Source: Candidatus Iainarchaeum sp.
GTDB taxonomy: Archaea > Iainarchaeota > Iainarchaeia > Iainarchaeales > JACQJH01
Reading direction: 5' to 3'
NCBI GenBank assembly: GCA_016205145.1
Contig: JACQJH010000002.1
Location: 489,696 to 553,695 of the forward strand
DNA length: 64,000 nt
This document shows, piece after piece, positions 11,542 through 64,000 of the stretch; positions within the stretch are counted from its first letter, which is position 1; every line of letters begins with the position of its first letter. Below the pieces are notes generated by a model. That model searched no databases. It was not told the DNA's origin and saw nothing but the letters and a program-made list of their open reading frames with translations. Both the position numbers and the translations under genes were made by a program.

Positions 11542-12315
11542 TCAGCAAATCAGGTCGTAGTCCGCCGGCAGCCTTCCGGTCGAAGCGAGGCCGAGCAGGT
11601 TGTCGAAAATCCAGAGCTTTGCGCAGCCGAGCACAGGGATCTGGAAGATTGCCTTGCCCTGCACTTGAGAGGCGTTGACCGGATAGAGCGTGATGCATGC
11701 CTGCTGTGAAACGCCGTTCACGATTTTGCCGCAGTCCGCGTCAAGAGTGTAATTCTGCTCGCTGTCGCCTTTTGTCAGGAGAAACGTTCCATCATTTGCA
11801 GCGAGTTTTGCCACGACGCGGTGGATTATCGGCCTGCCTGACGGGACAGCCGTGTAAACGACAATCGACCCGGTCTTTTCAACCGGAATTGTTTTGCCGT
11901 CCTTGAAAACGATTTTTTTCGCCTGCGGAATGCCATTCTCCATTTCAAACCTCAGCGACGCGAAATCGGAAAAAGGCGTGTTCGAAAGGCTTTGGCTTGG
12001 CATGGAAACTTCCGTTGCCTTGATGCCGTCCGGTCCGGCGCCGGCAAGCATTATGATGTCGCCGCGATGGTACAACGGTTTCATGGAGCCGGAAACGACT
12101 ATCATGAAAGGCGATTGCGTCTGCAGGATCATGCCCGCAATAGTGTATGCGAGCCAAGCGAAAACGAATGCGGAAACGATGTAAACTATTGTCGAGATTG
12201 CCGCGTTGTTTTTCGGGTTGACTGCCGGCATGACAAAGAGGTCGACGTAGTGGAACGGATCGAGCCATTTCAGCTTCTGCAGGATTGCATGGAATGGGCT
12301 TTGCTTGGCCGGCAT
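11542..12315 (-). CDS. signal peptidase I (archaeal/Sec11 type, S26 family)
   Basis: 257 aa. An N-terminal TM anchor is followed by the catalytic Ser motif VVSGSMKPLYHRGDII. Confidence 0.8.
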   Translation of the reverse strand: MPAKQSPFHAILQKLKWLDPFHYVDLFVMPAVNPKNNAAISTIVYIVSAFVFAWLAYTIAGMILQTQSPFMIVVSGSMKPLYHRGDIIMLAGAGPDGIKATEVSMPSQSLSNTPFSDFASLRFEMENGIPQAKKIVFKDGKTIPVEKTGSIVVYTAVPSGRPIIHRVVAKLAANDGTFLLTKGDSEQNYTLDADCGKIVNGVSQQACITLYPVNASQVQGKAIFQIPVLGCAKLWIFDNLLGLASTGRLPADYDLIC

Positions 12316-12341
12316 TTTTTCACGTCGGGCAGCCGGAAAGG

Positions 12342-12614
12342 CTACTTCGCCTTCTTTATTTCTTTCTTGAATTCGTCAAGCTTTTCGTCGACCCTTTTCA
12401 GGGCGTCGGAAAGCGCCTTTTTCGCCTGCTTGCCTTCCGTCTTCACAATGAACCTGCAGTCGTGGTCCATTGGATGATTGAGGGAATACGCCGCAAAGGA
12501 CACTTTCTCGTCTTCCAGTAGGGCTTCCCTCAGGAGATTGGGGAAAGTGTGCCTTTCGCCCTTGATTATGAATTCGGCAGAATTGTCCGAAGAATTCAGC
12601 ACTTCAAGTTCCAT
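12342..12614 (-). CDS. rpoL: DNA-directed RNA polymerase subunit L (Rpb11 homolog)
   Basis: 90 aa. RpoL signature (GERHTFPNLLREALLEDEKVSFAAYSLNHP); adjacent to csl4, as in many archaea. Confidence 0.8.
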   Translation of the reverse strand: MELEVLNSSDNSAEFIIKGERHTFPNLLREALLEDEKVSFAAYSLNHPMDHDCRFIVKTEGKQAKKALSDALKRVDEKLDEFKKEIKKAK

Positions 12615-12624
12615 TTATCGCACC

Positions 12625-13191
12625 TCATTTCAAAATATAATCTGAAGAAATTTTCCGCTGCTGCGTTGAGCCGCATGACAGGCATTTCAGGCCCTGGCCG
12701 AAAAGATGCAGCGGCTGCCTGCATTCCGTGCAGTAAGCCTTTATCACGCCCAGTGAATCGTCATTCGTGCTCACGTCGATCGCGAAAGGCGAGACCATTT
12801 CGGCTTTCCCCTTGACAAGGTCGCCTATCCTGAAAAAGTCTTTCAGGCTTTTCACGTATTCGCGCGCTACCATCCTGACCGGAATCATTGCAACGCCGAT
12901 GTGAACTGCCTTCTTTTTGCCGTCCTTTTCAGCCGAAATGATGTCAATCAGCACGGATGAGTCCTTGACAAGCCTGACTTTGCCGTAAACTATCGAGCCC
13001 CTGTCAAGCAATGCAACTTCGCGCTTTTTTTCGACGTTGACTTCCTTGAACCTTTGGTCAAACGAGACAAGGCCGATGGAATTGGACAGGATTTCGCCCT
13101 CGCATTCAAAGACGTTGCTGCCGGGAACGAATTCCTCGGCCGTCGACACGGCTTCGCCCGGCACGACGGGCTTTTGAGCATGTTTTTGCAT
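12625..13191 (-). CDS. csl4: exosome complex RNA-binding subunit Csl4
   Basis: S1 domain plus a C-terminal Zn-ribbon (CTECRQPLHLFGQGLKCLSCG). The start is probably the Met at MQKHAQKP, 23 codons inside the listed ORF. Confidence 0.7.
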   Translation of the reverse strand: MQKHAQKPVVPGEAVSTAEEFVPGSNVFECEGEILSNSIGLVSFDQRFKEVNVEKKREVALLDRGSIVYGKVRLVKDSSVLIDIISAEKDGKKKAVHIGVAMIPVRMVAREYVKSLKDFFRIGDLVKGKAEMVSPFAIDVSTNDDSLGVIKAYCTECRQPLHLFGQGLKCLSCGSTQQRKISSDYILK

Positions 13192-13293
13192 TGTATAACC
13201 CCAAAAATGGCGTTTTTGCGTTTTTCGGCCTGACCAAAAAAAACAGCTGAAAAACCGCAAACCGCAGAGAAAACCATTAAAACTGGTTAATAC

Positions 13294-13300
13294 TTTATAG
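13294..13300 (+). promoter_or_regulatory. archaeal TATA-like box for the SpoIIM-like gene
   Basis: TTTATAG lies about 28 bp upstream of ATG 13328. Confidence 0.35.
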
Positions 13301-13327
13301 AAATGGTAAGGAATTTAAAGGAACGGG

Positions 13328-14224
13328 TTGCCCTTGGTTTTGGAATCACTGATAGACACGGCCGCGGCAAAACGGCACCCTTTGGCCATTTTCCTGCTCG
13401 CCCTGGCCCTTTCCTCCGCGGCTTTCTGGATGGCATTTTTCACTTTCCCGGACTCGGCGAGCATACTGGCAATAGCATTCATCACCATAGCATTCGTGCC
13501 CATAATCCACTCCATCCTGGCTGAAACCGAGGAAGAGGAAGCGTTGGTGCCAAGCTGGTCGGTCGGCTTCCTGAGAAGGCATTTCGACGTCATCAAGATT
13601 TACGCCTGGCTTTTCCTCGGCGTTGTCGTAAGCTATTCGTTCTGGTTCGTGATCCTTCCAGGCGACGTGCACGCATCATTCTTCCAGGTCCAGGAAAAGG
13701 AGCTTGGGAAAATCACCACCATGAAGTCCACGCTTTCCGGAAACGCAAGCGGCGTGAAAAGCGTTGCCGAAAAGTGCGGCAGGGAATTCAGCTGCTGGTT
13801 CAACGTCATTTTCGTGAACAATGCGACAGTCCTGTTCTGGGCCGTGCTGTTCTCATTTGCAATGGGCGCCGGCGCGATTTTCCTGATAAGCTGGAACGCA
13901 TCAATAATCGGAGTTGTCATCGGCCGTGACATAATGGCGTTGTCATCGGCTTATTCGAATCTGGGCGAATACAGCCTTGCCGCGGCATTCCTGCACGGCC
14001 TGTTCAATGCAATTGGCTTCATTCCGCACGGCTTGCCCGAGATAACGGGCTATTTTTTGGGCGCAATCGCCGGCGGCATAATCAGCGCCGCGATTTCCAA
14101 GAAAAAGTTCCGGACCCACGAATTTGAAATAGTCGCAAAGGACGCCGCAGTGCTGGTGATGGCCGGAATACTGCTGCTGCTTCTCGGCGCCGCAATAGAG
14201 GCAAGCATAATAGCGGCTGTTTAG
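13328..14224 (+). CDS. SpoIIM-like membrane protein (DUF95)
   Basis: 298 aa, multi-TM. Conserved C-terminal motif LFNAIGFIPHGLPEITGYFLGAIAGG, typical of the stage II sporulation protein M family. Confidence 0.7.
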   Translation: MPLVLESLIDTAAAKRHPLAIFLLALALSSAAFWMAFFTFPDSASILAIAFITIAFVPIIHSILAETEEEEALVPSWSVGFLRRHFDVIKIYAWLFLGVVVSYSFWFVILPGDVHASFFQVQEKELGKITTMKSTLSGNASGVKSVAEKCGREFSCWFNVIFVNNATVLFWAVLFSFAMGAGAIFLISWNASIIGVVIGRDIMALSSAYSNLGEYSLAAAFLHGLFNAIGFIPHGLPEITGYFLGAIAGGIISAAISKKKFRTHEFEIVAKDAAVLVMAGILLLLLGAAIEASIIAAV

Positions 14225-14263
14225 TCTTGCTAAAAAAAAAGATGCAACGCACGTTTTGCAGCA

Positions 14264-15250
14264 TCAGGCATTCGCGTTTTCCAAAGCCATTTTTTTGAGC
14301 TTTGCCTCAACTGCTGAATCCACGGCTTTCTCAAAGGTTTTCTGGAACGGCGCAATCATCTGCTCGATGTCCTTTTCCCCCGCGGTTGAAGCGCCAATCT
14401 TGTCTGAAATGGAGTTGGCAATCCTGCTCAGCTCAAGCGGCAGGACAAATTTCGTGCTCTGGCCCCTTGAAAGCTCTTCAAGCGCCTTGATGTAGTAATA
14501 CGCGACCGTCTTGTCTGAAAGCTCCTTTGCCGCGGCATTGACTGCGCTGATTTCTTCCCTGTGGGCCTCGGCTTTCTGGATGCGCGCCAGTTTCTCCTGT
14601 TCCGCTGCCTTGAAGGCGTTGGTTGCGGCGAGGATTTCCTGCGGAATGTCGACGTCCTCGATTTCGACTTTCACTATCGATATGCCCCAGTCCTTTGATA
14701 TTTCCTCGACCTCGGATTTCAGGGCGCGGTTTATTTCCTCGATTTTTGAAACGACTTCGGGGACTTCCATGTCACCTATGACGTCACGCGTCGCTCCGAT
14801 GACATTCGCAACAACCGCTTCCTCGAAATTCTTGATGTTCACCACAGAGCTTACAACGCTCCCGTCATCCCTGCCCACATTCAGGAAGATTGCCTCCTTG
14901 ACCTTGAGCTCGATGTTGCCTTTTGTTATGACCTCGTACTTGGGCGTGAAAAGCGTTTTCGTGCGCAGGTCGACAATGACAAAGCTTTCAATGAATGGAA
15001 TGACAAAAGTCCAGCCCCTTCCCACCCGGTTCACTTTTCCGAAGCGGAAGATGACGGCGCGCTGGTAGTCCACGAGCAGCAGAAGCACCGGATACTTTGT
15101 GACCGCGAAAAGGAAAACTCCCAGGACAATTATCCACGGCAGGCTTGCCATTGCCGCGTCAAAGTTGACCATGAGCCAGACCGCGGCAAGAAGGAATGCC
15201 GCGAAAGCCCCTGCAATGATGCCGGATTTTACGCTTTTGCCCTCAACCAT
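14264..15250 (-). CDS. SPFH/band-7 (stomatin/prohibitin-like) membrane protein
   Basis: 328 aa. An N-terminal TM segment, then the band-7 domain (YQRAVIFRFGKV...), then a coiled-coil tail. Confidence 0.75.
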   Translation of the reverse strand: MVEGKSVKSGIIAGAFAAFLLAAVWLMVNFDAAMASLPWIIVLGVFLFAVTKYPVLLLLVDYQRAVIFRFGKVNRVGRGWTFVIPFIESFVIVDLRTKTLFTPKYEVITKGNIELKVKEAIFLNVGRDDGSVVSSVVNIKNFEEAVVANVIGATRDVIGDMEVPEVVSKIEEINRALKSEVEEISKDWGISIVKVEIEDVDIPQEILAATNAFKAAEQEKLARIQKAEAHREEISAVNAAAKELSDKTVAYYYIKALEELSRGQSTKFVLPLELSRIANSISDKIGASTAGEKDIEQMIAPFQKTFEKAVDSAVEAKLKKMALENANA

Positions 15251-16595: not shown

Positions 16596-16715
16596 AAAAA
16601 AGCAGACGGGTATCGGGCAAGCGGAATCGTCCAACCAATCACGCGCAACAGCGCGCAGCTCCATGCGAATGAAATGAGCATGGGGCGTCGGACCAGCCGG
16701 ACGAAATCGGCTTAA
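16596..16715 (+). repeat. interspersed structured repeat family, copy
   Basis: AAAGCAGACGGGTAT..., hairpin CGCGCAACAGCGCG, hairpin CCATGCGAATGAAATGAGCATGG, GGCGTCGGACCAGCCGGACGAAATCGGCTTAA. It supplies the stop codon of lonB. Confidence 0.6.
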
Positions 16716-20504: not shown

Positions 20505-20706
20505 GCAAAAAAAAGCAGATGGTTACTGGGCGAATGCGACGCACCGGAACCCCAAGATTCTGGACACGTCCAAAGCAGATGGGTATTGCATCAGCAATGC
20601 CCCAGAATCCTAAGATTCTGGGCACGTCGCAAAATCCAAGATTTTGCGAAGTACCCGTCGTCGCTCCACGCAGCCGAAACTGCGTCCGGACGGAATCACC
20701 GGCTTG
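20505..20706 (+). repeat. interspersed structured repeat family, long copy with internal triplicated 20-bp motif
   Basis: AAAGCAGATGG, then AAAGCAGATGGGTATTGCATCAGCAATGCCCC, then three copies of C(C/T)AAGATT(C/T)TG(G/C)(G/A)... (ccaagattctggacacgtc, cctaagattctgggcacgtc, tccaagattttgcgaagtac), ...CGTCGTCG..., GCAGCCGAAACTGCG...CCGGCTT. Confidence 0.55.
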
Positions 20707-34915: not shown

Positions 34916-35743
34916 ATGGCAAAACAGGGACTTTTGTTTGGCACGGCGGGAATGCCCCTCTCCTACAAAGGCAGGAGCGAGGGCGCAATGCCTTTCATCA
35001 AAAGCCTCGGCCTGGATGCAATGGAAATAGAGTTCGTGCGCGGCGTTTACATGAAAGAGGCGCAGGCGGAGGCATTGGGAAAGGCGGCGGAGGAAAACGG
35101 CATCACTTTGACGGTGCACGCGCCATATTACATCAACCTGAATTCGGAAAAAAAGCAGACTGTCGGCATGAGCAAAAGCTTCGTCTTTGAAAGCGCGCGC
35201 ATCGGCGCGATAGCCGGCGCAAAATCCATCTGCTTCCACGCAGGCTATTACGTCAAGGCGACGCCGGAGGAAACGTACGCGAACATAAAAAAGGCGGTCT
35301 CGGAAATACTTGACAAAATGAAATCGGAGGGCGTGAAAACCGTTCTCGCGCCGGAAGTCAGCGGAAAGAAAAGCCAGTTCGGGTCGCTCGAAGAAGTCAT
35401 TGCTTTGGGAAAGGAACTGGATGGCGTGCAGCCTTGCATCGATTTCGCGCACCTGCACGCGCGGACCGGCGGCAAAATGACTTCGCTGCAGGAATTCGAA
35501 GCAGTGCTCAGGCAGTTGCCCAAAAAATGGCTCGATTTCCTGCACGTCCACATGTCAGGCATGAATTTCGGCGAAAAAGGCGAAAAAAACCACCTCGTTT
35601 TCGGCGACCCCGGCAACAGGTTCCACTTCGAGCCGGCAATCCAGGCATTCAAAAAGCTCGGAGTGAAAGGCGTTGTGGTCTGCGAATCGCCGAACGTCGA
35701 GGAAGACGCATTGAAAATGAAAAACTGTTATTTACAGAAATAA
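34916..35743 (+). CDS. nfo: apurinic/apyrimidinic endonuclease, endonuclease IV family (xylose-isomerase-like TIM barrel)
   Basis: Begins LLFGTAGMP...; metal-binding motifs HAPYYINLNS and SICFHAGYY; about 275 aa. Confidence 0.65.
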   Translation: MAKQGLLFGTAGMPLSYKGRSEGAMPFIKSLGLDAMEIEFVRGVYMKEAQAEALGKAAEENGITLTVHAPYYINLNSEKKQTVGMSKSFVFESARIGAIAGAKSICFHAGYYVKATPEETYANIKKAVSEILDKMKSEGVKTVLAPEVSGKKSQFGSLEEVIALGKELDGVQPCIDFAHLHARTGGKMTSLQEFEAVLRQLPKKWLDFLHVHMSGMNFGEKGEKNHLVFGDPGNRFHFEPAIQAFKKLGVKGVVVCESPNVEEDALKMKNCYLQK

Positions 35744-35744
35744 T

Positions 35745-35920
35745 CCAGCCAAGCCGGATTTCGCCACCAGTCCGGCCTATGCGAGCAGGGCAGTGCCTTG
35801 CAAACCCCTTGCGTGGTATTGCTTGCGCAATACCACTTATGCACAAACAGCATACTCGGCGTATTGCAACAGCAATACGCCTTAGTTCGTACCAGCCGGA
35901 CGAGACGGCTGCGGGCGAAA
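35745..35920 (+). repeat. interspersed structured repeat family, copy
   Basis: Hairpins GTGGTATTGCTTGCGCAATACCAC and GGCGTATTGCAACAGCAATACGCC flank CATACTCGG, then TTAGTTCGTACCAGCCGGACGAGACGGCTGCGGGCG. Confidence 0.6.
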
Positions 35921-35964
35921 CCGCCGGGAAATATATATAAACATGGCCGCGAAATAATTATTCT

Positions 35965-36243
35965 ATGCACTATTCGCCAGGCAGCCCGGCTGACCGGTGG
36001 TATAACCGGCTTGGGGCATGGATAACGAGGAGCATCCAGCGCTTTGTCGGGTTCCTGTTCCTGCTGCTTGCAGCCGGCATAATCATCGGCGTCTTTGTCG
36101 CGACAAACAGGCCCCAGTACATAATCCCTGTTGTTCTCGCGCCAATCCTTATCGCATTGCTGTCCTATTATAGCAGGGGCATCGCAATCCTGATTTTTAT
36201 ACTGTTCATTCTGGGCTTTTTCGGTTTCTTTGCAGTACTGTGA
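35965..36243 (+). CDS. small hypothetical membrane protein
   Basis: 92 aa with two hydrophobic helices, immediately upstream of the ArsR-like regulator. Confidence 0.4.
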   Translation: MHYSPGSPADRWYNRLGAWITRSIQRFVGFLFLLLAAGIIIGVFVATNRPQYIIPVVLAPILIALLSYYSRGIAILIFILFILGFFGFFAVL

Positions 36244-36253
36244 GCGGAGCAAA

Positions 36254-36814
36254 ATGGACGTAACATTGTCGCACAGCGATTTCAAGGCGTTGTCCTCGGG
36301 CACGCGCGCGAAAATCCTGAAGCTGCTCGCGGAACGCAATCACACTATGTCCGAGATTTCAAAAAAGCTCGGCCTTGCAGCGCCCACAGTGAAACAGCAC
36401 CTTGACATGCTGTCCGGAGCCGGGCTCATAGAACCGGTCGGGGAAAACAGGAAATGGAAGTATTATGCTCTGTCAAGGAAAGGCAGGGGCATAATCCAGA
36501 AAAACGACTCTACAAACATCCTCATTGTAATGGCGGCAACGTTCGTTGCATTGGTTGTCATGCTTTTCAATCTTGTCGGCCAGTTCGGCAGAACTGCCGT
36601 GCCATTGCAGGCAATGCAGAAGACCGCCTCCGAAAGCGGCATTGCCGGAAGCGCCGCCGATGCCCTTCGGACGGAAACTGCCACAGTGCCGCAGACGATT
36701 CCTGCACCGGCGGGCTTCGACCCAATTGTCCTGAACGCCATAATAGTCATTGCCCTTGTGATTGCCCTGGCATATCTTCTTTCGCGATTGTCGAAAAAAG
36801 GCGAAGGAATTTAA
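36254..36814 (+). CDS. ArsR/SmtB-family winged-HTH regulator with C-terminal transmembrane segments
   Basis: HTH region (SDFKALSSGTRAKILKLLAERNHTMSEISKKLGLAAPTVKQHLDMLSGAGLI) and two predicted TM helices. The start is set at MDVTLSHSD. Confidence 0.65.
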   Translation: MDVTLSHSDFKALSSGTRAKILKLLAERNHTMSEISKKLGLAAPTVKQHLDMLSGAGLIEPVGENRKWKYYALSRKGRGIIQKNDSTNILIVMAATFVALVVMLFNLVGQFGRTAVPLQAMQKTASESGIAGSAADALRTETATVPQTIPAPAGFDPIVLNAIIVIALVIALAYLLSRLSKKGEGI

Positions 36815-36835
36815 GGTTGGCCTTCCGGCAATCCT

Positions 36836-37417
36836 TTGATGCGCGGAAAAGGCTTTTTCGCTTTTGTTCTGGTAATTTTCTTCCTGCTCGCCGCAACGGA
36901 GTCGGCGGGCAGGCAATCCTCCTCGTTCCGCTCGTTCTCCGAAGCGCATCGCATTGCAATGGAGCTTGAAAGCCAGAACATGCTCCGGTCGAACGTTGAA
37001 AACAACCTCGATTTTGTCGTGGAAAAAACAATGCGCAGGCAGATTCTCCTCGGAAGCACGGATCCGGCGCAATTGAAGCTTGCGCTGGACGAAAAGGTTT
37101 TTTCCTTTTTCCTGGAAACGCAAAAAAATGCACGGCCGCGAAACCTCGAATTCTCCGGAGCAACGGTTTACGGAAACCGGTATTCTGAAAACGCCGGCGC
37201 GGCGGCGCAGGAAAAACTTTCAATGGAATTCATTGGCCGGAATTCGGTTGCGTTCGTGGAACTGGCCGGCGGGGCATGGATTGCGGAATACCATTTTTCC
37301 GGCGGGCTTTACAGGAACAGCGCAGTGATTGGCCGGATTGTCTCCGAAGACAATGAAACCATGACGGTTTTTTTCCTGCCTGCAGGGTACTCTAAAACAG
37401 TTGTGGTGGTCGGTTGA
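36836..37417 (+). CDS. type IV pilin-like protein (class III signal peptide)
   Basis: The N-terminus MMRGKG-FFAFVLVIFFLLAATE has a basic residue plus Gly followed by a hydrophobic stretch. It is first in a block of four overlapping + strand genes. Confidence 0.45.
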   Translation: MMRGKGFFAFVLVIFFLLAATESAGRQSSSFRSFSEAHRIAMELESQNMLRSNVENNLDFVVEKTMRRQILLGSTDPAQLKLALDEKVFSFFLETQKNARPRNLEFSGATVYGNRYSENAGAAAQEKLSMEFIGRNSVAFVELAGGAWIAEYHFSGGLYRNSAVIGRIVSEDNETMTVFFLPAGYSKTVVVVG

Positions 37418-37755
37418 GCAATGGCCAGGCAAGCGTGGAAGCGATGGCCGCGATTGCGCTGATTCTTTCCGCTGCGGCGTTTTTCCTGTCCGGGCAGGCG
37501 CTTTTGGAGAACGCGGTTTCCGAAGCCGAAAAAAAGCTTGTCGCGAAAGCCGAAGCGCAGTCATGCGCGATTGTGGCGGACGCGGTTTTCAGCAATTCCC
37601 TCGGCTTTTCCGGAAAATACGGATGCGCTCCAACCGCCGGGGGAGTTGAAGGAATGGCTTTCGGAAAAACCGCTTCGGAAAAAACCCTGTCGGAAAAGTC
37701 CGCGGCATCAGGAGATGGGGGCCTTGAAACAATGGCACCGGAACATTATGCCTGA
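37414..37755 (+). CDS. type IV pilin-like protein (class III signal peptide)
   Basis: N-terminus MSNGQASVEAMAAIALILSAAAFF, with the characteristic GQ(A/S)..E motif cleaved by prepilin peptidases. Confidence 0.6.
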   Translation: MSNGQASVEAMAAIALILSAAAFFLSGQALLENAVSEAEKKLVAKAEAQSCAIVADAVFSNSLGFSGKYGCAPTAGGVEGMAFGKTASEKTLSEKSAASGDGGLETMAPEHYA

Positions 37756-38215
37756 ACAAAACCAGGGCGGGGCATTCTTTTCCGCCGACCTGGCGATAGC
37801 GTTCGTGAGCCTTGCGTTCCTGTTTTTCCTGGTTTCCGAAACGCGCATTTCAGGCCTCAACGAAAAAACCGCGGAAAGCGAAAGCGTTTCCATGCAGAAA
37901 ACCGCGTTTTTCCTCGCCGACTCCATGGTGAAAAACCGCGATGAAAACAACGCATTGCTTGGAATGGCTGCATTCAATGCCGGGGCGGGGCGCGTTGAAA
38001 GCAATGCCCTGCCTGAAAGCCTTGAAGGCATGCGGTTTGCGCAGTTGCGCGGAAGCATTTTTGTCGAAAGCGTTTCAATCGCGTATTTTGACGGGAACTC
38101 CGTGGAAATATTCCGTGATGCGCGTGCCGGCGCGAAAAACTGCATTGCGACCGAAAGGCTTGTTCTCAGAGGCATGAAAAAGGCGCTTCTCAGGGCAAGG
38201 GTTTGCGGTGAATGA
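37748..38215 (+). CDS. type IV pilin-like protein (class III signal peptide)
   Basis: Start at the internal Met (MPEQNQGGAFFSADLAIAFVSLAFLFFLV). It overlaps the previous stop in an ATGCCTGA arrangement. Confidence 0.5.
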   Translation: MPEQNQGGAFFSADLAIAFVSLAFLFFLVSETRISGLNEKTAESESVSMQKTAFFLADSMVKNRDENNALLGMAAFNAGAGRVESNALPESLEGMRFAQLRGSIFVESVSIAYFDGNSVEIFRDARAGAKNCIATERLVLRGMKKALLRARVCGE

Positions 38216-38588
38216 ATTGGGGAAAGGATTTTACCTGTCAATGGAGGCCGCAGTGAGCCTCCTGCTGTTTTCGGCTGCGGTCCTGGCACTCCAGCCGCCG
38301 CCCGCCAAAAGCCTCTCTGATTTATACGTGCTGCAGAAGGAAAACGACTTGCTGAAAATCTGGGTTAAAGAGGCAAAATTTGAAATTCAGGAAATGGAAA
38401 AAGATTTCCTGTTTTCCTTTCCCGGCCGCCATGGTTTTGTCTCAATCAACGGGAAAACATTTGAAGCAGGCACGCCTGAGAATGCCCGGGAATGCGGGGA
38501 TTTTGCCGTGTCTCAAGCGTTTTTCCTCGACGAAAATCTCAAAAAAACCGTGTTAAGGGTCGGCGTTTGCGCGGACAACGCCGCCTGA
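38208..38588 (+). CDS. type IV pilin-like protein (class III signal peptide)
   Basis: N-terminus MNELGKG-FYLSMEAAVSLLLFSAAVLAL (KG then a Glu at +5, classic prepilin). Confidence 0.6.
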   Translation: MNELGKGFYLSMEAAVSLLLFSAAVLALQPPPAKSLSDLYVLQKENDLLKIWVKEAKFEIQEMEKDFLFSFPGRHGFVSINGKTFEAGTPENARECGDFAVSQAFFLDENLKKTVLRVGVCADNAA

Positions 38589-38972
38589 CTTTTCAAGCGC
38601 CACAACGGATTTTGGCGGAAGAAAAAAATCAAAGTCTTCCATCCGGCCCGAAAGTTCAGTTGAAAGTGTTTTGGAGAATTCTTCCCCGCTGCCGGACGCC
38701 GCGTTCAGGGAAATTTCGAGCATTCCTGCATTTGAGGATGCGCGCCATTCAGCCGAGTTTTGCGCGGCAATCGTTTTCCTTGACCCGTCCGCCAGGACAG
38801 CGAGTTCCATTGAAGCTGCCGAAAGCCTGTCCGCGAACGACCTTGCCTTGGCGGTTTCAGAAGAAGCCTGGGCAAGCCAGAGCGTTTTGTCCCACGCAAA
38901 GGCAAAAACAGCGAGAAGTGCAAGGCCTGCCGCAAGCAGGAGCAGGAATTCCATGCTCGCCTGCCCCTGCAT
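38553..38972 (-). CDS. type IV pilin-like protein (class III signal peptide)
   Basis: Internal start MQGQASMEFLLLLAAGLALLAVFAFAW. Convergent with the + strand pilin block. Confidence 0.55.
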   Translation of the reverse strand: MQGQASMEFLLLLAAGLALLAVFAFAWDKTLWLAQASSETAKARSFADRLSAASMELAVLADGSRKTIAAQNSAEWRASSNAGMLEISLNAASGSGEEFSKTLSTELSGRMEDFDFFLPPKSVVALEKSGGVVRANADP

Positions 38973-39036
38973 GCCCTGCCCGCGTTTTGCGGGGAGAATG
39001 GCCGTTGTCTCACACGCAGCCACGCCAAGCACCACT

Positions 39037-39228
39037 TCAGATTTCGTCTATTTTCTTGAAAATTTCGCCGGTCTTCTTGTTTATGACCTTTGCGCCCTCG
39101 CTGCCAGTTTCCTGCAATTGCGAGACGAGCAGCAAAACCATTGCGACCACCGCGGCCAAAACTATTATGAGTTCGACGGAAATCTGGCCGTGCTCTTCGG
39201 AAAAAATTTGCGAAAGTGCCCGAAACAT
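39037..39228 (-). CDS. short type IV pilin-like protein (63 aa)
   Basis: ...HGQISVELIIVLAAVVAMVLLLVSQL, a prepilin-type signal with a short mature domain. Confidence 0.5.
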   Translation of the reverse strand: MFRALSQIFSEEHGQISVELIIVLAAVVAMVLLLVSQLQETGSEGAKVINKKTGEIFKKIDEI

Positions 39229-39348
39229 GACGGAACCGTTTGCGGAAAAGTTTTAAAGGCAACGCAGGAATTCGACGATTGCCATACCGCGCCGGCGGTA
39301 TTGGAAAAAAAACGGGAAAAAAGTTATTAATGGTTCGATGCAATATCC

Positions 39349-39990
39349 TTGCCTATGGAAGCCAAATTAAGCGTATTCGACTGGCCGTCGCTGATTGATG
39401 ACAGGGAAAAACGGGATTTGCTTATTGCGTGGGTTGCCTTGTCAATCGCGTTCGGATTGAGCTTTGCCCGTAACGGCGGCCTGCTGTTTTCCTTTGCGAC
39501 AAGCTTTCTCGCGGTCGGCACCGGCTTCATTTTCCATGAGCTCGGCCACAAGTTTGCCGGCATACATTACGGCGCAAGCGCGGGCTTCAGGAAATGGGAT
39601 TTCGGCCTGGGCCTGGCCTTGCTGCTCGGCGCGATGTCTTTCTTCACGGGCTTCGGATTCATTTTCGCGGCTCCCGGCGCGACGTACATCTATTCCGAAA
39701 GCATTTCAAGGAAGCAGAACGGCTTAATCTCGCTTGTCGGCCCGGCAATCAACATTGCCCTGGCGCTAGCGCTTTTCCTGTTGAGCATTTTTTCCGCGAT
39801 GTTTTTCCCTTCCGGGCTCATTGCCGGCGTCCTGCTGTTTGCCGCGATAATCAACCTCTACCTTGCGTTTTTCAACATGCTGCCGATTCCGCCGCTTGAC
39901 GGCAGCAAGGTCATAGTCTGGAACCCGGTAATCTGGGGCGTTGTTTTCGTGCCGCTGCTTTTCCTGTTCTATTTTTCGGGCATACTTTGA
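39349..39990 (+). CDS. site-2 protease family (M50) intramembrane metalloprotease
   Basis: 213 aa. HELGH zinc motif, a multi-TM core and the LPIPPLDGSKV motif. Confidence 0.8.
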   Translation: MPMEAKLSVFDWPSLIDDREKRDLLIAWVALSIAFGLSFARNGGLLFSFATSFLAVGTGFIFHELGHKFAGIHYGASAGFRKWDFGLGLALLLGAMSFFTGFGFIFAAPGATYIYSESISRKQNGLISLVGPAINIALALALFLLSIFSAMFFPSGLIAGVLLFAAIINLYLAFFNMLPIPPLDGSKVIVWNPVIWGVVFVPLLFLFYFSGIL

Positions 39991-48088: not shown

Positions 48089-48571
48089 CTACAATTTTTT
48101 CTGCAGGCTCTGGCTCGGCAGGATTGCGGTCTTGGAAATTTCCGACATTACGACAAGGGTTTTCACGTCGATTATGCCGTCGACCAGGCCGACCTTGTTT
48201 ATGAGCGATTCCGCGCTTTCAAGGTCGGAAACGACTATTTTTGCGAGAAGGTTGTATTCGCCCAGGACCTGGTAAAGCTCGACAATGGAATCCATTGCCA
48301 GCAGTTTTTTTATCACGTCGCGGTTCTTGGAGATTTCGGAGCGCATCTGCACGTAAATCGGGTTTTCGAAGCCCAGCGCCTTGAAGTTGAGGTTGGCCGT
48401 TATCGATGAGACGATTCCGCGCTTTTTGAGCATTTCAACGCGCTTCTTGATCGCGACGTCCGTCAGCTTCGCCTGGCGGGCAATCGCGGAAAACGACGCC
48501 CTGCCATCCGAAAGCAGCGCTTCCAAAATGATGCGGTCTATCCTGTCAAGCTCGACGCGCCTCAAAACCAA
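48089..48571 (-). CDS. lrp: Lrp/AsnC family transcriptional regulator
   Basis: 160 aa. HTH (DRIDRIILEALLSDGRASFSAIARQAKLTDVAIKKRVEML) plus a RAM domain. Confidence 0.8.
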   Translation of the reverse strand: MVLRRVELDRIDRIILEALLSDGRASFSAIARQAKLTDVAIKKRVEMLKKRGIVSSITANLNFKALGFENPIYVQMRSEISKNRDVIKKLLAMDSIVELYQVLGEYNLLAKIVVSDLESAESLINKVGLVDGIIDVKTLVVMSEISKTAILPSQSLQKKL

Positions 48572-59442: not shown

Positions 59443-59853
59443 TCAGGAAACCACTTGGACTGTCACAGGATCATAACCTGTGGTTGCCTTGACCTTTGCC
59501 GCTGTGCCGGAAACAATGTCGGAGCGGATGTCGCTTGGCAGGCCAGCCGGGCTGATGTAGGCTGTTATCGTGATGCGTTTCCCGGAAGCGGGCGGGGCGT
59601 TCGCATGTTCTTGGAAGTCAAGCTTTTCAAGCAGGAAAACCGTGTCGGCTTTCTGCAGCCTTGCGAGAATGTCGGTTTTCGCTGTCAGCAAAGCCTTTGT
59701 CGAATCGTTGATTGCCAGAAAATAGCTTAAAGCGACAAGCGAGAGGCCGATGACGACAACCGCTATAAGCAATGCCTCAAAGCTAATCTGTCCTTTTTTG
59801 TTCAAGAGAGCACCTTCAGATCGGCACGTTAAGCGAAACCCCGCCGGAGTCAT
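59443..59853 (-). CDS. type IV pilin-like protein (class III signal peptide)
   Basis: ...NKKGQISFEALLIAVVVIGLSLVALSYFL. The start is probably an internal TTG just before NKKGQ (about 59808). Confidence 0.55.
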   Translation of the reverse strand: MTPAGFRLTCRSEGALLNKKGQISFEALLIAVVVIGLSLVALSYFLAINDSTKALLTAKTDILARLQKADTVFLLEKLDFQEHANAPPASGKRITITAYISPAGLPSDIRSDIVSGTAAKVKATTGYDPVTVQVVS

Positions 59854-60322
59854 TCTGGATTGCTATGCGCAGGCTTGCGGGACCGGTTATGGGTGCGGAA
59901 ATGTTGCCGCAGGAATTGATATTTTTTATGAACGTTGCCTCGCCCACGCACTTGTTGATGTTGCCCGTGCCGTCATTCTGGCATGCCGGCGGCTCTTTTC
60001 CCGGGCCGAGCTTTGCGCTGAGGCTTGCCTTAAACGTGATTTTTGACGGACTGCATTCTATCGTTGCTTCTGCCGGAATGAAGACGTTGATCGTTTCCTT
60101 CGCCTCGCCAGAGGAAGTGAGGATGGCATTTGTGGCCGAAGCGATTTTGTCCGCGGCAAGCCTCGCCTGCCCGACCCTTGCAACGTCTTTCGCGGATTCA
60201 GCCGCAATAGTGATGTTCGGCTGGACGTAGCCCACGATGTAGACAAGCGAAATGAGCACAATCATTATGAATTCGATTGACGCCTGGCCCTTCCTGTTTT
60301 TCAGAAACCCAAAATTTTCCAC
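59816..60322 (-). CDS. type IV pilin-like protein (class III signal peptide)
   Basis: MENFGFLKNRKGQASIEFIMIVLISLVYIVGY..., followed by a Cys-containing mature domain. Confidence 0.6.
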   Translation of the reverse strand: MENFGFLKNRKGQASIEFIMIVLISLVYIVGYVQPNITIAAESAKDVARVGQARLAADKIASATNAILTSSGEAKETINVFIPAEATIECSPSKITFKASLSAKLGPGKEPPACQNDGTGNINKCVGEATFIKNINSCGNISAPITGPASLRIAIQNDSGGVSLNVPI

Positions 60323-61422
60323 AGCAAATCACCCGCAATGCCAAGCAAGACGAACGCAATCAGGACCGAGGGCGCAAAGGCCGCGCTCTTCTTGACCAGG
60401 ATTTTTTCCGGAATGCGTTTTTCCATGCATAATTTTTTCAGCTCCGAAAGCTCTTCTTCAGTCAGGCCGCGCGCCTTGATGCTCGACGCAATCTCCCTTC
60501 CCTGGGGCTTTAGCTCGGACAGAAGGGATTCTAATTTATTGGCTTTTAAGTGGTTAATAATTGTTTTTATTGAAAGCGGCTCCTTTTCCGCCACATTGCC
60601 GTCGGAAAGCAGGAAAAAGCTTTTCGCGGGAATGTCGCCTTCCGCCAGCTCGCTGACGGGCTTCTCCTCAACCAAAAACCGCTTTGAAACCGCGAAAAGC
60701 TTTAAGAAAATGTAAACAAGCGAAATTGCCGCGGTTGAAGCCAGAAAGCCGGAAAGCGCCGGCAAAAGGCTCTGCCACAATGCAAACGCAAACAATCCCG
60801 CCGACACTGCCGGTTTTGCCTTGGCCGGCAGGAAAGCCGCAATGAAAAGCAGCGGCAGCACCAGAATCTGCGGCAAACCGAACAAAACCAGGACCGCGTT
60901 CAAGCCCAGGGCAAGGGCAATGATTTTTGCAGTCGAAACAACCGTGCCCCTGACGCTTTCAAAGATTTCCCTGCGCGCAACCGCGTCCGATTGCAGGCCG
61001 CGCACGGCAATCATCGCGCCGAAAGGCATGACCGAAAAAACCGAGAAAATGAAAAGCGTGAGCGGAAAAATTGGAAGGGGAATCGCCTGCAGCAGCGGAA
61101 TTCCAAGCAATGCGCCGGCAACCGCGGGATTGAACGGGTTCGCGAAGGCAAGCGCCGTGAACAGTTTCACGTCCCCGCCGGCCCAGACGCCGAGCTTCCA
61201 CAGAAGCCACGAAACGCAAAAAGTCGCAATTCCCAAAGCAATCGAAAACCCCAGAATTGACCAGTCGGATTTCACAAACGATTCGGTTGTTTTGGATGCC
61301 AGCGCAAAAGCAATCAGCGAATACGTCAATTTGTTCGGGATTAGCCTTTCTCTCAAATCAATGATTGACGCAACGGCAAGGACTGCAAGCGAAACAAGGT
61401 AGTTTGCCAGAACAAAAAGCAT
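60301..61422 (-). CDS. prepilin/preflagellin peptidase (A24 family) with C-terminal extension
   Basis: Start at MLFVLANYLV. The two catalytic Asp motifs are present (IIDLRERLIPNKL and WAGGDVKLFTALAF); about 8 TM helices, then a soluble C-terminal domain. Confidence 0.75.
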   Translation of the reverse strand: MLFVLANYLVSLAVLAVASIIDLRERLIPNKLTYSLIAFALASKTTESFVKSDWSILGFSIALGIATFCVSWLLWKLGVWAGGDVKLFTALAFANPFNPAVAGALLGIPLLQAIPLPIFPLTLFIFSVFSVMPFGAMIAVRGLQSDAVARREIFESVRGTVVSTAKIIALALGLNAVLVLFGLPQILVLPLLFIAAFLPAKAKPAVSAGLFAFALWQSLLPALSGFLASTAAISLVYIFLKLFAVSKRFLVEEKPVSELAEGDIPAKSFFLLSDGNVAEKEPLSIKTIINHLKANKLESLLSELKPQGREIASSIKARGLTEEELSELKKLCMEKRIPEKILVKKSAAFAPSVLIAFVLLGIAGDLLWKILGF

Positions 61423-61524
61423 TGCATTCCACACCTGCACAAAAAAAACTTGCCTATTAAAAGAAAGGGCGGCGCAAATAAAAGGCTTATGAAGGCCACG
61501 CAATCATTTTGTGAATAGGCAGGC

Positions 61525-61716
61525 TTACTGCATAAGCGAAGTGATGGTTTCGCTGCGGTAGGTCAGGATGTCAGCCTGCGCCTTGGTTGCAACGGAAACG
61601 ATTGCATTGATTAGAAGCGCGGCTGCAATCGCAAGGAGGATTCCGAACAATGCCGTCAGAAGGTATTCAAAAGCCGTTTGGCCGCGCTCATCCACTGGCA
61701 ACACCTTAAACTCCAT
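61525..61716 (-). CDS. short type IV pilin (63 aa)
   Basis: MEFKVLPVDERGQTAFEYLLTALFGILLAIAAALLINAIV..., a class III signal peptide. Confidence 0.55.
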   Translation of the reverse strand: MEFKVLPVDERGQTAFEYLLTALFGILLAIAAALLINAIVSVATKAQADILTYRSETITSLMQ

Positions 61717-61870
61717 TGACCGTGTTGAGGAAATTCGTCAGCTGCTGGTTTCCCTGCTGCTTGGTCGGCCCGATGAAGTTCGTGATAACCACGATTACAA
61801 CCGCGGCAATCAAAACGGCTGCCGCAATCAGCAGAAGGTATTCCAGTGCGCCTTGACCTTTCGAATCCAT
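61706..61870 (-). CDS. ultra-short Flp-like type IV pilin (tandem copy 1)
   Basis: MDSKGQGALEYLLLIAAAVLIAAVVIVVI... The N-terminus is almost identical to the next two genes, and the C-terminus is variable. Confidence 0.6.
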   Translation of the reverse strand: MDSKGQGALEYLLLIAAAVLIAAVVIVVITNFIGPTKQQGNQQLTNFLNTVNGV

Positions 61871-61884
61871 TGGTTTCACCAAAA

Positions 61885-62061
61885 TCATGCGACGTTCCCC
61901 AAATTTGCAAGACTTGAGTTGTACGTGCCCTGGGAATTTTCAATGCTGCCTTTGCCGCTGCTTGCAGAGCTTGTCAGCAGTATTATGACGACTGCCGCAA
62001 TCAGCACAGCCGCACCAATCAGCAGCAGATACTCCAATGCCCCTTGACCTTTCGAATCCAT
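61885..62061 (-). CDS. ultra-short Flp-like type IV pilin (tandem copy 2)
   Basis: Internal start MDSKGQGALEYLLLIGAAVLIAAVVIILL..., about 58 aa. Confidence 0.6.
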   Translation of the reverse strand: MDSKGQGALEYLLLIGAAVLIAAVVIILLTSSASSGKGSIENSQGTYNSSLANLGNVA

Positions 62062-62123
62062 TTCAACACCACCGGTTTTTTTAAGAATAAAAAAAAGGCC
62101 AGCGAGTGGCCTTCTCTGCCAGT

Positions 62124-62306
62124 TCATGGAGTGAGCTGGTTTTGCAGGTTTGACTGCGCTTCCGTAGCGGTATTAGCCGATGTCTCAGCTGTGGTTTTGC
62201 CCGACTGCCCTATGTTCGTCAGCAGCACTATTACGACTGCCGCAATCAGCACAGCCGCACCAATCAGCAGCAGATACTCCAAAGCGCCCTGTCCATTAGA
62301 ATCCAT
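62124..62306 (-). CDS. ultra-short Flp-like type IV pilin (tandem copy 3)
   Basis: Internal start MDSNGQGALEYLLLIGAAVLIAAVVIVLL..., about 60 aa. Confidence 0.6.
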   Translation of the reverse strand: MDSNGQGALEYLLLIGAAVLIAAVVIVLLTNIGQSGKTTAETSANTATEAQSNLQNQLTP

Positions 62307-62322
62307 TTTTTCAACCTCCAAT

Positions 62323-62487
62323 TTAACCGTTTAAAACCTGTTGCTCCCTGTTGGCGAGTTCGTTCTGAACCGCTTTTGGCACAGATTTTAAGTATAAAGC
62401 AACGACCAAGGCTACGACAATGGCTGCGGCGATCATAAGCAGCACTTCGATTGAGGCCTGCCCGAGTTCCTCCGAAAAAAGGCTCAT
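62323..62487 (-). CDS. short type IV pilin-like protein
   Basis: Internal start MSLFSEELGQASIEVLLMIAAAIVVALVVALYL... Confidence 0.5.
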   Translation of the reverse strand: MSLFSEELGQASIEVLLMIAAAIVVALVVALYLKSVPKAVQNELANREQQVLNG

Positions 62488-63416
62488 ATCACGCCACCAA
62501 ACAGTCCAACCGACAGGATTTTTGCCGCAAAATAACAAACAAACGCAAGTAATAGAAGGATTGGGATGTATATAATACTTTTGCTCATTTTTCCGTCGCG
62601 CATAAGCGAAAGCATGAATCCGACGGCAAGAATTTCAACTGCGATATACGCCTGCATGAGCAGCACTATGAGGTCCTTAACTGCGACTGCCTGCGCCCTT
62701 GCCGCGAGGCCGATGTCAAGGCCCTGTGAGGCCGAAACCACAAGGAACGAAATGATTGTCGAAACGATGCCGAAAATGAGCGGCGCCACAATCGCGCCGG
62801 CGGCAACCATGAACATGACCTGCATCGTGGTTTTCGCCTTGCGCTCCTGCCCTATGCGGTAAATTTCGCGGATGTCGTCGGAAATCTCCTCAAGAACGTC
62901 GGCAAGGCCCGCGCCTGCCTTGATCGAATCGATTATGACGATGATTGACCTGCTTACAAGCCTTGAATCGATGTTTTCGGAAAAGCTTTTCAGGGAATTC
63001 TCAAGGTTTTCGCCTTCCTCAAGCTTCCTCAAAACATTGTTCATCTCCTTTGCCAAAGGCCCGTATTCGGCGTTCGCAATCTCCCGCAAAGCATATTCGT
63101 ATGTGCCGCCCGCGTTAAGCGTGTCAGCCATCTGTTTCAGGGCTTCCGGCAGTGCCTTTTCAATGGCGTCAATGCGCTGCATTGCCTTCAGGTAAGGATA
63201 ACCCAAAAACAGGTCCAATGCGACAATTGGAATGACCGCGACAAAAATCCTGAGCTCGTCGAACAAACCGGCAACGCTGAGGAAAAAGAACGTGAGAACC
63301 GCGAAGATGATTGCGAGCGCCACGGCCATGGCGATGAAAACCCCCGCGTCCACTTTCAGGCCGGCCTGCTTCAAATAGCCCTGGTACTTTTCAACTAGTG
63401 TCTGCTCCTGTTCCAT
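62484..63416 (-). CDS. type II secretion system F-domain membrane protein (TadC/FlaJ-like pilus platform)
   Basis: 310 aa. T2SS-F domain architecture: TM helices, a cytoplasmic helical domain (...LKQMADTLNAGGTYEYALREIA...) and C-terminal TM helices. Confidence 0.7.
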   Translation of the reverse strand: MEQEQTLVEKYQGYLKQAGLKVDAGVFIAMAVALAIIFAVLTFFFLSVAGLFDELRIFVAVIPIVALDLFLGYPYLKAMQRIDAIEKALPEALKQMADTLNAGGTYEYALREIANAEYGPLAKEMNNVLRKLEEGENLENSLKSFSENIDSRLVSRSIIVIIDSIKAGAGLADVLEEISDDIREIYRIGQERKAKTTMQVMFMVAAGAIVAPLIFGIVSTIISFLVVSASQGLDIGLAARAQAVAVKDLIVLLMQAYIAVEILAVGFMLSLMRDGKMSKSIIYIPILLLLAFVCYFAAKILSVGLFGGVI

Positions 63417-63419
63417 ATT

Positions 63420-64000
63420 TCAAGACCTCGGCTGGCTGATTGCAATGTACGCTATGAGAGTTGCAAGCACTATCGGCATTATGACAAGATAAATGACCGC
63501 GATGTTCTCCGGCGCGAGCGGCAGAACCGAGAAAATGCTGCTGCCGCTGCCGATCTGCAAAGGCGTGTTCCTGACTCCGCCGAGAATTGCGATGAAAACC
63601 GGCAGGACAATGGCGATGAAAATGAATATGACCCCGAAAAAGTTGAGCGCTTCCGCAAAGGCCTGGATTCTCGCCCTCAATTCGAACGAAACGTCTTCCG
63701 CGATTGTTTCCATGACATCGGAAAGGTTGCCCCCGGTCTTCAGCGCCCTGATTATGTGCAGCAGGGCACTCCTCAACGCAACGGACTGCGTGCGCAAGGC
63801 GAGGTTCCGCAACGCATCCTTGGTGTCGGTGCCCTCCTCTATCTGCGTGACAACCCACGAGAATTCCTCGGACAAAGCGCCGTAACCTGCGGTTGCAATC
63901 GCCTGGATTGTGCGGTAAAGGCTTATCCCGGCTTTAAGCTCGGTCGCCATGTGCCTCAAAGCGAAAGGCATTTCCCTTGTCACCGCCTCGCCGCGCATCT
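63420..64000 (-). CDS. second T2SS-F domain membrane protein (TadB-like), 5' end beyond window
   Basis: ORF open to the window edge. Contains ...LRHMATELKAGISLYRTIQAIA...LRSALLHIIRALKTGGNLSDVMETIAE..., typical of T2SS-F. Confidence 0.6.
   Translation of the reverse strand, partial: MRGEAVTREMPFALRHMATELKAGISLYRTIQAIATAGYGALSEEFSWVVTQIEEGTDTKDALRNLALRTQSVALRSALLHIIRALKTGGNLSDVMETIAEDVSFELRARIQAFAEALNFFGVIFIFIAIVLPVFIAILGGVRNTPLQIGSGSSIFSVLPLAPENIAVIYLVIMPIVLATLIAYIAISQPRS

Follow-up and report, generated by a model that had tools for sequence, protein, structure and literature searches.

Between positions 35965 and 39990 of a 64-kb stretch of DNA from Candidatus Iainarchaeum sp. (hereafter the window), a DNA-binding protein with transmembrane (TM) helices, six pilin-like proteins and an M50-type intramembrane protease are encoded side by side. 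This raises the question whether they work as one regulatory system, as was proposed in an earlier sequence-only reading, in which the protease would release the DNA-binding domain of the regulator to control the pilin operon. The map of open reading frames (ORFs), their translations and Pfam searches recovered all the genes described in that reading: a small membrane protein (g1), the regulator (ArsR-TM), six prepilin-like proteins (g3 to g8) and the M50 homologue. In this region, a tiny DPANN archaeon (Candidatus Diapherotrites / Iainarchaeia) carries a conserved cluster of accessory pilin genes that has its own membrane-anchored ArsR-type regulator. We favour, with moderate confidence, the interpretation that it is an accessory module of an Epd-like ('system 1') pilus, that the regulator, while staying in the membrane, controls the pilin operon in which it is encoded, and that the M50 protease is a housekeeping neighbour. 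New here is the uncharacterised conserved accessory pilin operon with an embedded ArsR-type TM regulator, the kinds of component being already known.

Each of the six prepilin-like proteins begins with a short charged leader of the [KR]-G/A type, which leads directly into a hydrophobic stretch of about 20 residues. Four are encoded on the + strand: g3 (36839-37417; 192 residues, the largest; N-terminus MRGKG|FFAF), g4 (37414-37755, TTG start; 113 residues; MSNG|QASVE), g5 (37748-38215; 155 residues; ..QGG|AFFSAD) and g6 (38208-38588, GTG start with an alternative TTG at 38217; 126 residues; ..GKG|FYLSME). The two others lie on the - strand. g7 (38553-38972 or 38553-39035) has 139 residues from the ATG at 38972 (MQG|QASME) or 160 residues from the GTG at 39035; it contains a C-terminal domain and looks like a pilin with a head domain. 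g8 (39037-39228; 63 residues) is a short Flp/EpdE-like pilin (..EHG|QISVELIIVLAAVV, with a G|QISVE motif) and a candidate for the fibre-forming subunit; its positional orthologues (55-74 residues) are likewise short pilins without a globular domain. Alignments of orthologues showed that the N-terminal motifs are kept in 41-48 members per family, with the consensus leaders M.xKG|FFCF (g3), KG|QLSLE (g4), KG|FxFSxD (g5), KG|FxLSxE (g6), KG|QLSLEY (g7) and G|QISVE (g8). The leaders of g4 (MSNG) and g5 (..QGG) are thus weak in the window, where the orthologues have KG. An acidic residue is present as E at +5 in g4, g7 and g8, and as D or E at +6 in g5 and g6. The same alignments support the upstream TTG and GTG starts of g4 and g6; on an identical 4.2-kb contig of a Logan assembly, a public gene caller chose internal ATGs for both genes and the motif was lost.

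The Class_IIIsignal family of Pfam (PF04021) was matched by 41 of 85 g4, g7 and g8 orthologues (E<=0.01; best E=1.1e-7). The window copies of g7 and g8 reached 14.6-14.8 bits, which is below the cut-off of 23.7 (E ~0.03; E=0.034 for g7), and g3, g5 and g6 matched neither PF04021 nor any other family in Pfam or NCBIfam, nor a PDB sequence. No named relatives of g1, g3, g5 and g6 were found in Pfam and NCBIfam, and NCBIfam had no name for any of g3-g8. Profile-profile comparison with hhalign joined g4, g6, g7 and g8 at 92-97% (g4 to g7 96.7%, g4 to g8 92.7%, g6 to g4 92.8%) and g5 to g6 at 86% (85.7%), the latter over the N-terminus only. A six-frame scan of the 64-kb window for G|Qxx[x]E or KG|hydrophobic N-termini detected class-III-like N-termini solely in the g3-g8 block and in a pilus core block at 59.4-62.5 kb, with one false positive in the TadC gene adjoining the latter; their occurrence in the g3-g8 block goes beyond chance. 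The motifs kept among the orthologues bear out the earlier description of the six proteins as prepilin-like, and the PF04021 matches among g4, g7 and g8 orthologues agree with it. They are predicted to be genuine class III (prepilin-type) signal-peptide proteins that are cleaved by a prepilin peptidase.

The regulator ArsR-TM (36254-36814, +; 186 residues) matched the HTH_5 family of Pfam with an E-value of 4.6e-13 (49.3 bits, cut-off 22), and the top match of its profile among PDB sequences was Phr/ArsR (2p4w, 9e-12). Its score against the metalloregulator subfamily of NCBIfam was 48.9, under the cut-off of 55. Hydropathy analysis and the homologue alignment confirmed that the protein has its own TM helices (residues ~87-110 and ~154-178), so that its layout consists of the helix-turn-helix (HTH) domain, TM1, a low-complexity outside loop of ~43 residues, TM2 and a short basic tail. 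Lysine and arginine residues number 15 in the N-terminal domain, three in the loop and two in the 8-residue tail, a distribution from which an N-in/C-in hairpin with a cytoplasmic HTH domain is predicted. ArsR-TM contains no cysteine, and a thiol metal-sensing site (CxC of the ArsR type) is therefore absent; this argues for an ArsR-fold DNA binder, by fold, that is not a classical thiol-based metal sensor. A common architecture was found for 115 homologues, mostly named Diapherotrites or Iainarchaeum: the RKWKYY wing is invariant, TM1 is followed by a low-complexity loop that varies, and TM2 is usually present. The HTH domain and both TM helices are kept in most of 30 aligned homologues, and in four a Cys-containing C-terminal domain replaces TM2. 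TM1 was also considered as a class III signal and rejected, as no G or A precedes the hydrophobic stretch.

Directly 5' of the regulator in 43 of 55 loci, and as first gene of the predicted operon, stands g1 (35965-36243, +; 92 residues, two to three hydrophobic helices by hydropathy). The family counts 46 orthologues with the conserved core ISxFVAFLF...APAxLGLIAYYNR. g1 is a small integral membrane protein and a candidate co-component of the regulator.

The genes of the cassette are tightly packed. g1 and ArsR-TM are separated by 10 bp, ArsR-TM and g3 by 24 bp, and g3 to g6 overlap. Two ATGCCTGA junctions had been counted in the sequence-only reading, of which one alone is correct (g4/g5, at 37748); the g3/g4 junction is a TTGA overlap (37414-37417) and the g5/g6 junction is GTGAATGA (38208-38215). 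One transcription unit would run from 35965 to 38588 with g1, ArsR-TM and the four translationally coupled genes g3-g6, and a convergent unit from 39228 to 38553 would comprise g8 followed by g7. A TATA-like element (ATATATATAAA) is located ~25-35 nt 5' of the ATG of g1. In the 126-bp divergent intergenic region between g8 and M50 (39229-39354), each gene has its own TATA-like element, and one imperfect palindrome was found. A mobile-element origin of the region was considered and rejected; the GC content is flat across it.

Two perfect palindromes (GTATTGC-N4-GCAATAC) 5' of g1 were considered as operators and rejected as members of a dispersed repeat. This repeat also occurs at ~3.3, 16.7 and 20.6 kb, and the palindromes are missing upstream of g1 in the relatives, the closest one included. 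The repeat itself is short and lies at ~3340-3440, 16640-16710, 20570-20690 and 35800-35910, with the core AAGCAGATGG-GTATTGC-N4-GCAATAC-CCGTCGTCG.ACCAGCCGGACGAAAC. Its 18-nt palindrome is exact at 3369, 35816 and 35861 and carries one mismatch at 20583, and a tandem pair of copies is found between the AP endonuclease gene and g1. The repeat had no match in Rfam: no match at the gathering threshold was obtained in the whole 64-kb window, and 35700-36000 gave a chance-level match only.

In order to follow the cassette among relatives, the ArsR-TM alignment was scanned against species-representative genomes, which gave 277 relatives; 80 loci were taken (loci of relatives are designated here by L-numbers), their ORFs were called, and family hidden Markov models (HMMs) were built iteratively and mapped. 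Among the 77 non-redundant loci, 57 were of the 'Iainarchaeia type'. g3, g5 and g6 were found within 4.5 kb after ArsR-TM in 36 of 41 loci with enough sequence, and g3 follows ArsR-TM directly (6-257 bp) in 26 of 31 same-strand pilin-bearing loci. Of 38 informative loci, 36 have an M50 gene at most 4.5 kb downstream of ArsR-TM. Conservation of the whole neighbourhood, which the sequence-only reading had wished to see checked, was observed as well, regulator, pilins and M50 being all present in 32 of 38 informative Iainarchaeia-type loci. The g1-regulator-pilin cassette is conserved across dozens of Iainarchaeal species. The synteny extends beyond it, upstream to Obg GTPase, Orc1/Cdc6 and AP endonuclease and downstream to Cdc48, NFACT and topoisomerase I (TopoI). 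Since it reaches unrelated housekeeping genes, this synteny says little on function.

Five relatives carry an insert of ~1.4 kb between the regulator and g3 (L011 8574-10008, L017 4027-5432, L029 8575-9920, L050 8619-10016, L072 8563-9878). It encodes an Lrp/AsnC-like HTH protein of ~330 residues on the - strand and a membrane protein of 84-110 residues; in L072 the same pair stands between the regulator and M50.

The second class-III-positive region of the window is the pilus core block (59443-63998, -). It is composed of two pilins (59443-60322), an EppA/FlaK-like A24 prepilin peptidase with Peptidase_A24 and Arc_PepC domains (60301-61503), five tandem short pilins of 60-80 residues (61525-62538) and two TadC/T2SSF platform genes (62484-63998), all on the - strand. 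Its seven pilins are all of the GQ type. The peptidase showed weak matches to EppA and FlaK in NCBIfam. The link with the cassette comes from the relative L032, in which g3-g6 are contiguous with TadC, a pilin, an A24 peptidase and two more pilins. This arrangement argues that the g3-g8 block serves as accessory module to the Epd-like pilus that has its core genes at 59.4-64 kb. The five tandem pilins have near-identical N-termini (KG|QGALEYLLLI), and their DNA consists of 91-nt direct repeats of 75-90% identity, which points to a recent duplication of the major pilin gene at 61525-62538.

DPANN archaea are among the hosts of 'system 1' archaeal type IV filaments, besides methanogens (bioRxiv 10.64898/2026.04.22.720090). 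The Epd pili of Methanococcus maripaludis (system 1/clade 1) share with the window the pilin Q at +1 and E at +5 (G|QxSxE; PMC4858521), a dedicated EppA-like A24 peptidase with Arc_PepC, two TadC/T2SSF platform genes, major-type pilins that are very short and lack a globular domain, and several minor pilins, further pilin genes being placed away from the main locus. In contrast, no sequence similarity was established between g3, g5 or g6 and the named Epd proteins, the window peptidase stays far below the EppA cut-off of NCBIfam (52.6 vs 450 bits), and a membrane regulator with a small membrane protein belonging to the accessory block is not described for Epd.

g3-g6 probably constitute a four-member minor-pilin set. 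By analogy they recall the bacterial four-gene minor (pseudo)pilin sets FimU-PilVWX and GspHIJK, which are four small co-transcribed prepilin-like genes; g3, the largest one and without acidic residue at +5, would be the analogue of GspK. The archaeal proteins are much smaller, and the likeness is one of layout, with no sequence or fold similarity established. Archaeal surface proteins other than pilins also use class III signal peptides. It is conceivable that g3-g6 build another surface assembly, be it a short pseudopilus, an envelope anchor or something akin to a bindosome, ArsR-TM being a general envelope regulator linked to them by chance in this lineage. The lack of Pfam, NCBIfam and PDB sequence matches for g3, g5 and g6 speaks for this possibility, as does the fact that distant ArsR-TM homologues precede lipoprotein-like envelope genes and not pilins. 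However, contiguity of g3-g6 with prepilin peptidase, TadC and pilins in L032, constant association with the bona fide pilin families g7 and g8, and small sizes with a four-gene coupled layout resembling minor-pilin sets all speak for a pilus, and we regard another type of assembly as unlikely.

The distant ArsR-TM homologues deserve a description of their own. At 20 distant loci (Woese-, Nano- and Micrarchaeota, Altiarchaeales), neither pilins (0/20) nor M50 (0/20) were found, and many of them precede two lipoprotein-like genes. Such a pair was seen ~600-2300 bp after the regulator in L034, L052, L067, L071, L074, L077, L078, L081 and L085 (labelled Woesearchaeota/Nanoarchaeia, some mislabelled Methanosarcinales). 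It consists of a protein of ~245 residues with a ...QGSTEFDVAPDLAKV... motif and a Cys-rich protein of ~300 residues. These contexts suggest that the ArsR-TM family regulates varied envelope operons.

Under the accessory-pilus interpretation, the EppA-like peptidase (60301-61503) would cut all six prepilin-like proteins, and the platform genes at 62.5-64 kb would assemble them. ArsR-TM would remain anchored in the membrane while regulating, as ArnR, ToxR and TcpP do. The operon would, in the simplest case, be autoregulated, the HTH domain of ArsR-TM binding the promoter in front of g1 and perhaps also that of g8. The two TM helices and g1 may sense a membrane signal, for example, to speculate, the pool of unassembled pilins or of pilin N-terminal helices. 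Sensing is probably achieved via the TM helices or g1, since the outside loop is short, variable and of low complexity.

Membrane-bound regulators of archaeal pili and archaella are established, namely ArnR and arCOG00381 (PMC4858521, PMC10269533). ArnR/ArnR1 of Sulfolobus and arCOG00381 of haloarchaea resemble ArsR-TM in joining an HTH domain to TM helices, in standing beside type IV filament genes and in being thought to act from the membrane (PMC4858521, PMC10269533). They differ in the HTH domain (pfam13463 and pfam11748 vs ArsR/HTH_5), and ArsR-TM is distinguished by an N-terminal HTH followed by two TM helices, by its occurrence in DPANN and by being encoded in a minor-pilin operon next to a small membrane partner that is itself conserved. 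The statement that no coupling of this kind had been described for archaeal pili holds for site-2 proteases (S2Ps) in the literature searched. For an S2P that acts on a membrane regulator of a type IV pilus, there is a bacterial precedent in TcpP/TcpH/YaeL (PMC11323476).

The M50 gene (39355-39990, +) codes for a protein of 211 residues without PDZ or CBS domain. It matched PF02163 with 49 bits (cut-off 27.2) and displays the motifs HELGH and NMLPIPPLDG. In an alignment of 20 homologues, HExxH and NxxPxxxLDG are invariant (H61, E62, H65, N174, P177, L181, D182 and G183). No PDB entry was found by sequence; the AlphaFold2 (AF2) model (predicted local distance difference test, pLDDT, of 86) had the S2P of M. 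jannaschii (3b4r) as best PDB match (prob 1.00, TM-score 0.42). Family, motifs and modelled fold agree with the earlier identification as an M50 intramembrane protease and indicate a true S2P-type M50 with intact motifs and S2P-like fold. The family is large, with 1709 homologues. The window protein is 46% identical to the M50 of Methanobrevibacter ruminantium, the same value as to other Iainarchaeal copies, and an HMM built from Iainarchaeal M50s alone matched the Methanobrevibacter protein at ~1e-65. These comparisons identify it as orthologue of a widely conserved archaeal M50 of ~200 residues and not as a cassette-specific paralogue.

The genomic contexts of this orthologue are informative. 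In Methanobrevibacter it is found with Sec61beta and PolD. Two Micrarchaeota genomes show the order TopoI-NUDIX-NFACT-Cdc48-131aa-M50-AP endonuclease, with no regulator and no pilins. The window order is AP endonuclease, then g1-ArsR-g3..g8, then M50-Cdc48-NFACT-x-TopoI; the cassette sits exactly between two genes, AP endonuclease and M50, that are adjacent in another DPANN phylum. Cdc48 lies within 2 kb of M50 in all 36 loci having M50 within 4.5 kb of the regulator. When metagenome contigs were scanned with M50 as anchor, ArsR-TM or g1 was near none of 30 strong orthologues, and the pilin block was present in one of 15 loci with at least 3 kb upstream. M50 therefore looks like the housekeeping S2P homologue of the lineage, placed by ancestry and not a dedicated partner; it stands beside the cassette because the cassette lies inside an old AP-endonuclease / M50 / Cdc48 / NFACT neighbourhood. 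The 131-residue protein between Cdc48 and M50 in the Micrarchaeota (L087 4602-4997, L092 4606-5001) is a conserved membrane protein without family assignment. In L055, the Cdc48 homologue beside M50 is a single ORF of 1781 residues (9488-14833, -), compared with ~720-800 residues elsewhere, and may contain inteins.

Every pairwise link among regulator, pilins and M50 is broken in some genome (L032, L026, L090, L091, L093, L055). L032 has the regulator and the pilins with no M50 within 7.8 kb. In L026, the complete AR10 genome, g1 and the regulator lie without pilins beside an inverted TopoI..NFACT-Cdc48..M50 segment, and M50 is 7 kb from the regulator, travelling with Cdc48, NFACT and TopoI. 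L055, L047 and L072 have the regulator and M50 without pilins, and L030 retains just g7 and g8; in L047 the orientation and the neighbours of the retained regulator and M50 are also altered. In L093, which is metagenomic, the entire pilin block is inverted beside M50 and preceded by a cytoplasmic Lrp/AsnC regulator of 150 residues (3136-3588), and not by g1 and ArsR-TM. A similar Lrp/AsnC gene is present in the window, distant from the cassette (48089-48571, -).

It remains to be weighed whether ArsR-TM is nonetheless a substrate of the adjacent M50. TM1 would then be cut after trimming of the loop, which would either free the HTH domain, as for SREBP, or destroy the regulator, as for TcpP and YaeL, with g1 in the role of TcpH. 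S2P substrates need an N-in (type II) TM topology. The predicted N-in TM1 suits this requirement, the HTH-TM1-loop-TM2 hairpin resembles SREBP, the catalytic motifs of M50 are intact, and its modelled fold is that of an S2P. M50 lies downstream of ArsR-TM in the 36 of 38 informative loci given above and remains by g1-ArsR-TM in the four genomes short of all or most pilins (L055, L030, L047, L072). The absence of true TM helices, the absence of M50 synteny and ordinary signal peptides in the pilin-like proteins had been named beforehand as fatal to this idea; none of the three applied, and the idea survives on these points. Archaeal S2P substrates are unknown (PMC9263693), and a bacterial precedent is found in TcpP, which undergoes regulated intramembrane proteolysis (RIP) through Tsp and YaeL unless its small partner TcpH prevents it (PMC11323476).

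This precedent is by analogy the nearest real one for release by an S2P. In Vibrio cholerae, Tsp acts first and the S2P YaeL(RseP) second in degrading TcpP, against which TcpH gives protection (PMC11323476). As in the cassette, a TM regulator and a small membrane co-component stand upstream of a type IV pilus regulon, the level of TcpP being set by site-1/site-2 proteolysis. The system differs in being bacterial, in its OmpR-type DNA-binding domain, in a single TM with a periplasmic domain and in an S2P that is not encoded beside the regulator; moreover, the known cleavage is that of TcpP. SREBP and its site-2 protease share with the cassette a transcription-factor domain followed by TM1, a short outside loop and TM2 as hairpin, and a protease with HExxH and LDG. 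The eukaryotic SREBP depends on an escort protein and on a prior site-1 cleavage of its loop, and no equivalent of either was identified in the cassette.

The evidence against this proteolytic route is of several kinds. The M50 orthologue is widespread in lineages without the regulator, and none of the 30 M50-anchored or of the 20 distant ArsR-TM loci showed the pair. The older neighbourhood of M50, Cdc48 and AP endonuclease accounts for the adjacency in the window, and the link is broken in L032 and AR10/L026. M50 is predicted to be a separate transcription unit, TM1 has no evident conserved helix-breaking motif, and the cassette holds no site-1 protease candidate: domain searches, which did not extend to the remainder of the genome, detected no protease domain among g1 and g3-g8. 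Of the features of a dedicated RIP cassette, an N-in substrate helix is predicted by the positive-inside rule; specific co-localisation of protease and substrate across genomes was not found, the M50-ArsR-TM adjacency being limited to genomes of the Iainarchaeia type, where it forms part of a wider synteny of housekeeping genes. Release of the ArsR domain by M50, as put forward in the sequence-only reading, is thus unsupported, the orthologue being found elsewhere without the cassette, the pairing absent from both sets of loci and the links broken, and we consider that ArsR-TM is improbable as an M50 substrate.

Several observations weigh against the accessory-pilus interpretation with M50 as a bystander. 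No operator was definable upstream of g1. The g1 promoter and the g8/M50 spacer have no motif in common beyond chance, the best 12-mer match scoring 10.2 within genomes and 10.3 between genomes. g3 has no acidic residue at +5/+6 in any of its 48 orthologues and no detectable similarity to known pilins; the search of its profile against PDB sequences was empty, and its AF2 model, from an alignment of three sequences, was unusable (pLDDT 42). A single-sequence homologue search with g3 returned three close relatives only, which points to a fast-evolving family; a protein identical to g3 is annotated as hypothetical on a 637-kb contig of a Ca. Diapherotrites metagenome-assembled genome. In L090, L091 and L093, the pilin block adjoins M50 and ArsR-TM is absent, so that the regulator is dispensable for keeping the block; Cdc48 identity suggests that L091 is roughly as distant as the Micrarchaeota. 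The strands of M50 and AP endonuclease differ between the Micrarchaeota and the window, and insertion of the cassette into an old neighbourhood would therefore need extra local inversions; gain and loss are both compatible with the arrangement. Finally, insertions of more than 300 bp were counted at the pilin-M50 junction in 3 of 36 loci and at the M50-Cdc48 junction in 13 of 37 (Fisher p ~0.01, uncorrected for shared ancestry). The tighter pilin-M50 junction leaves room for a functional or regulatory tie between M50 and g8.

Such a tie would link M50 to the pilins and not to the regulator, either through co-regulation from a compact bidirectional promoter shared with g8 or through clearance of cleaved class III signal peptides or unassembled pilin helices from the membrane by the protease. 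The S2P-family protein RseP degrades remnant signal peptides in bacteria. Persistence of the divergent g8/M50 or pilin block/M50 pair without ArsR-TM in L090, L091 and L093 and the fewer insertions at the junction are in favour of this view; we nevertheless find it quite improbable, as the orthologue is without nearby pilins in Micrarchaeota and Methanobrevibacter and at 14 of 15 informative metagenome loci, as M50 did not accompany g3-g6 in their move to the core genes of the pilus in L032, and as the junction statistic ignores shared ancestry and a short bidirectional promoter may tolerate insertions poorly. To the same slight degree we can imagine that g1 and ArsR-TM are an archaeal TcpH/TcpP-like co-component pair and that the neighbouring housekeeping M50 sets the abundance or release of ArsR-TM, by which expression of the pilus subunits would be tuned.

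If M50 did control ArsR-TM, a natural substrate would be identified for the first time for a site-2 protease of archaea. It would also be the first case of an archaeal pilus controlled by proteolysis, and this in a DPANN lineage whose pili probably serve contact between cells. For the analysis of small genomes, the locus illustrates that conserved neighbourhoods can include unrelated housekeeping genes and that synteny alone is not functional coupling. It is assumed that DPANN archaea rely on contact of their surface with other cells, and to our knowledge nothing is known about the regulation of their pili. A membrane-anchored ArsR-type regulator with a small membrane partner, located within a minor-pilin operon, represents a concrete handle on the regulation of DPANN pili.

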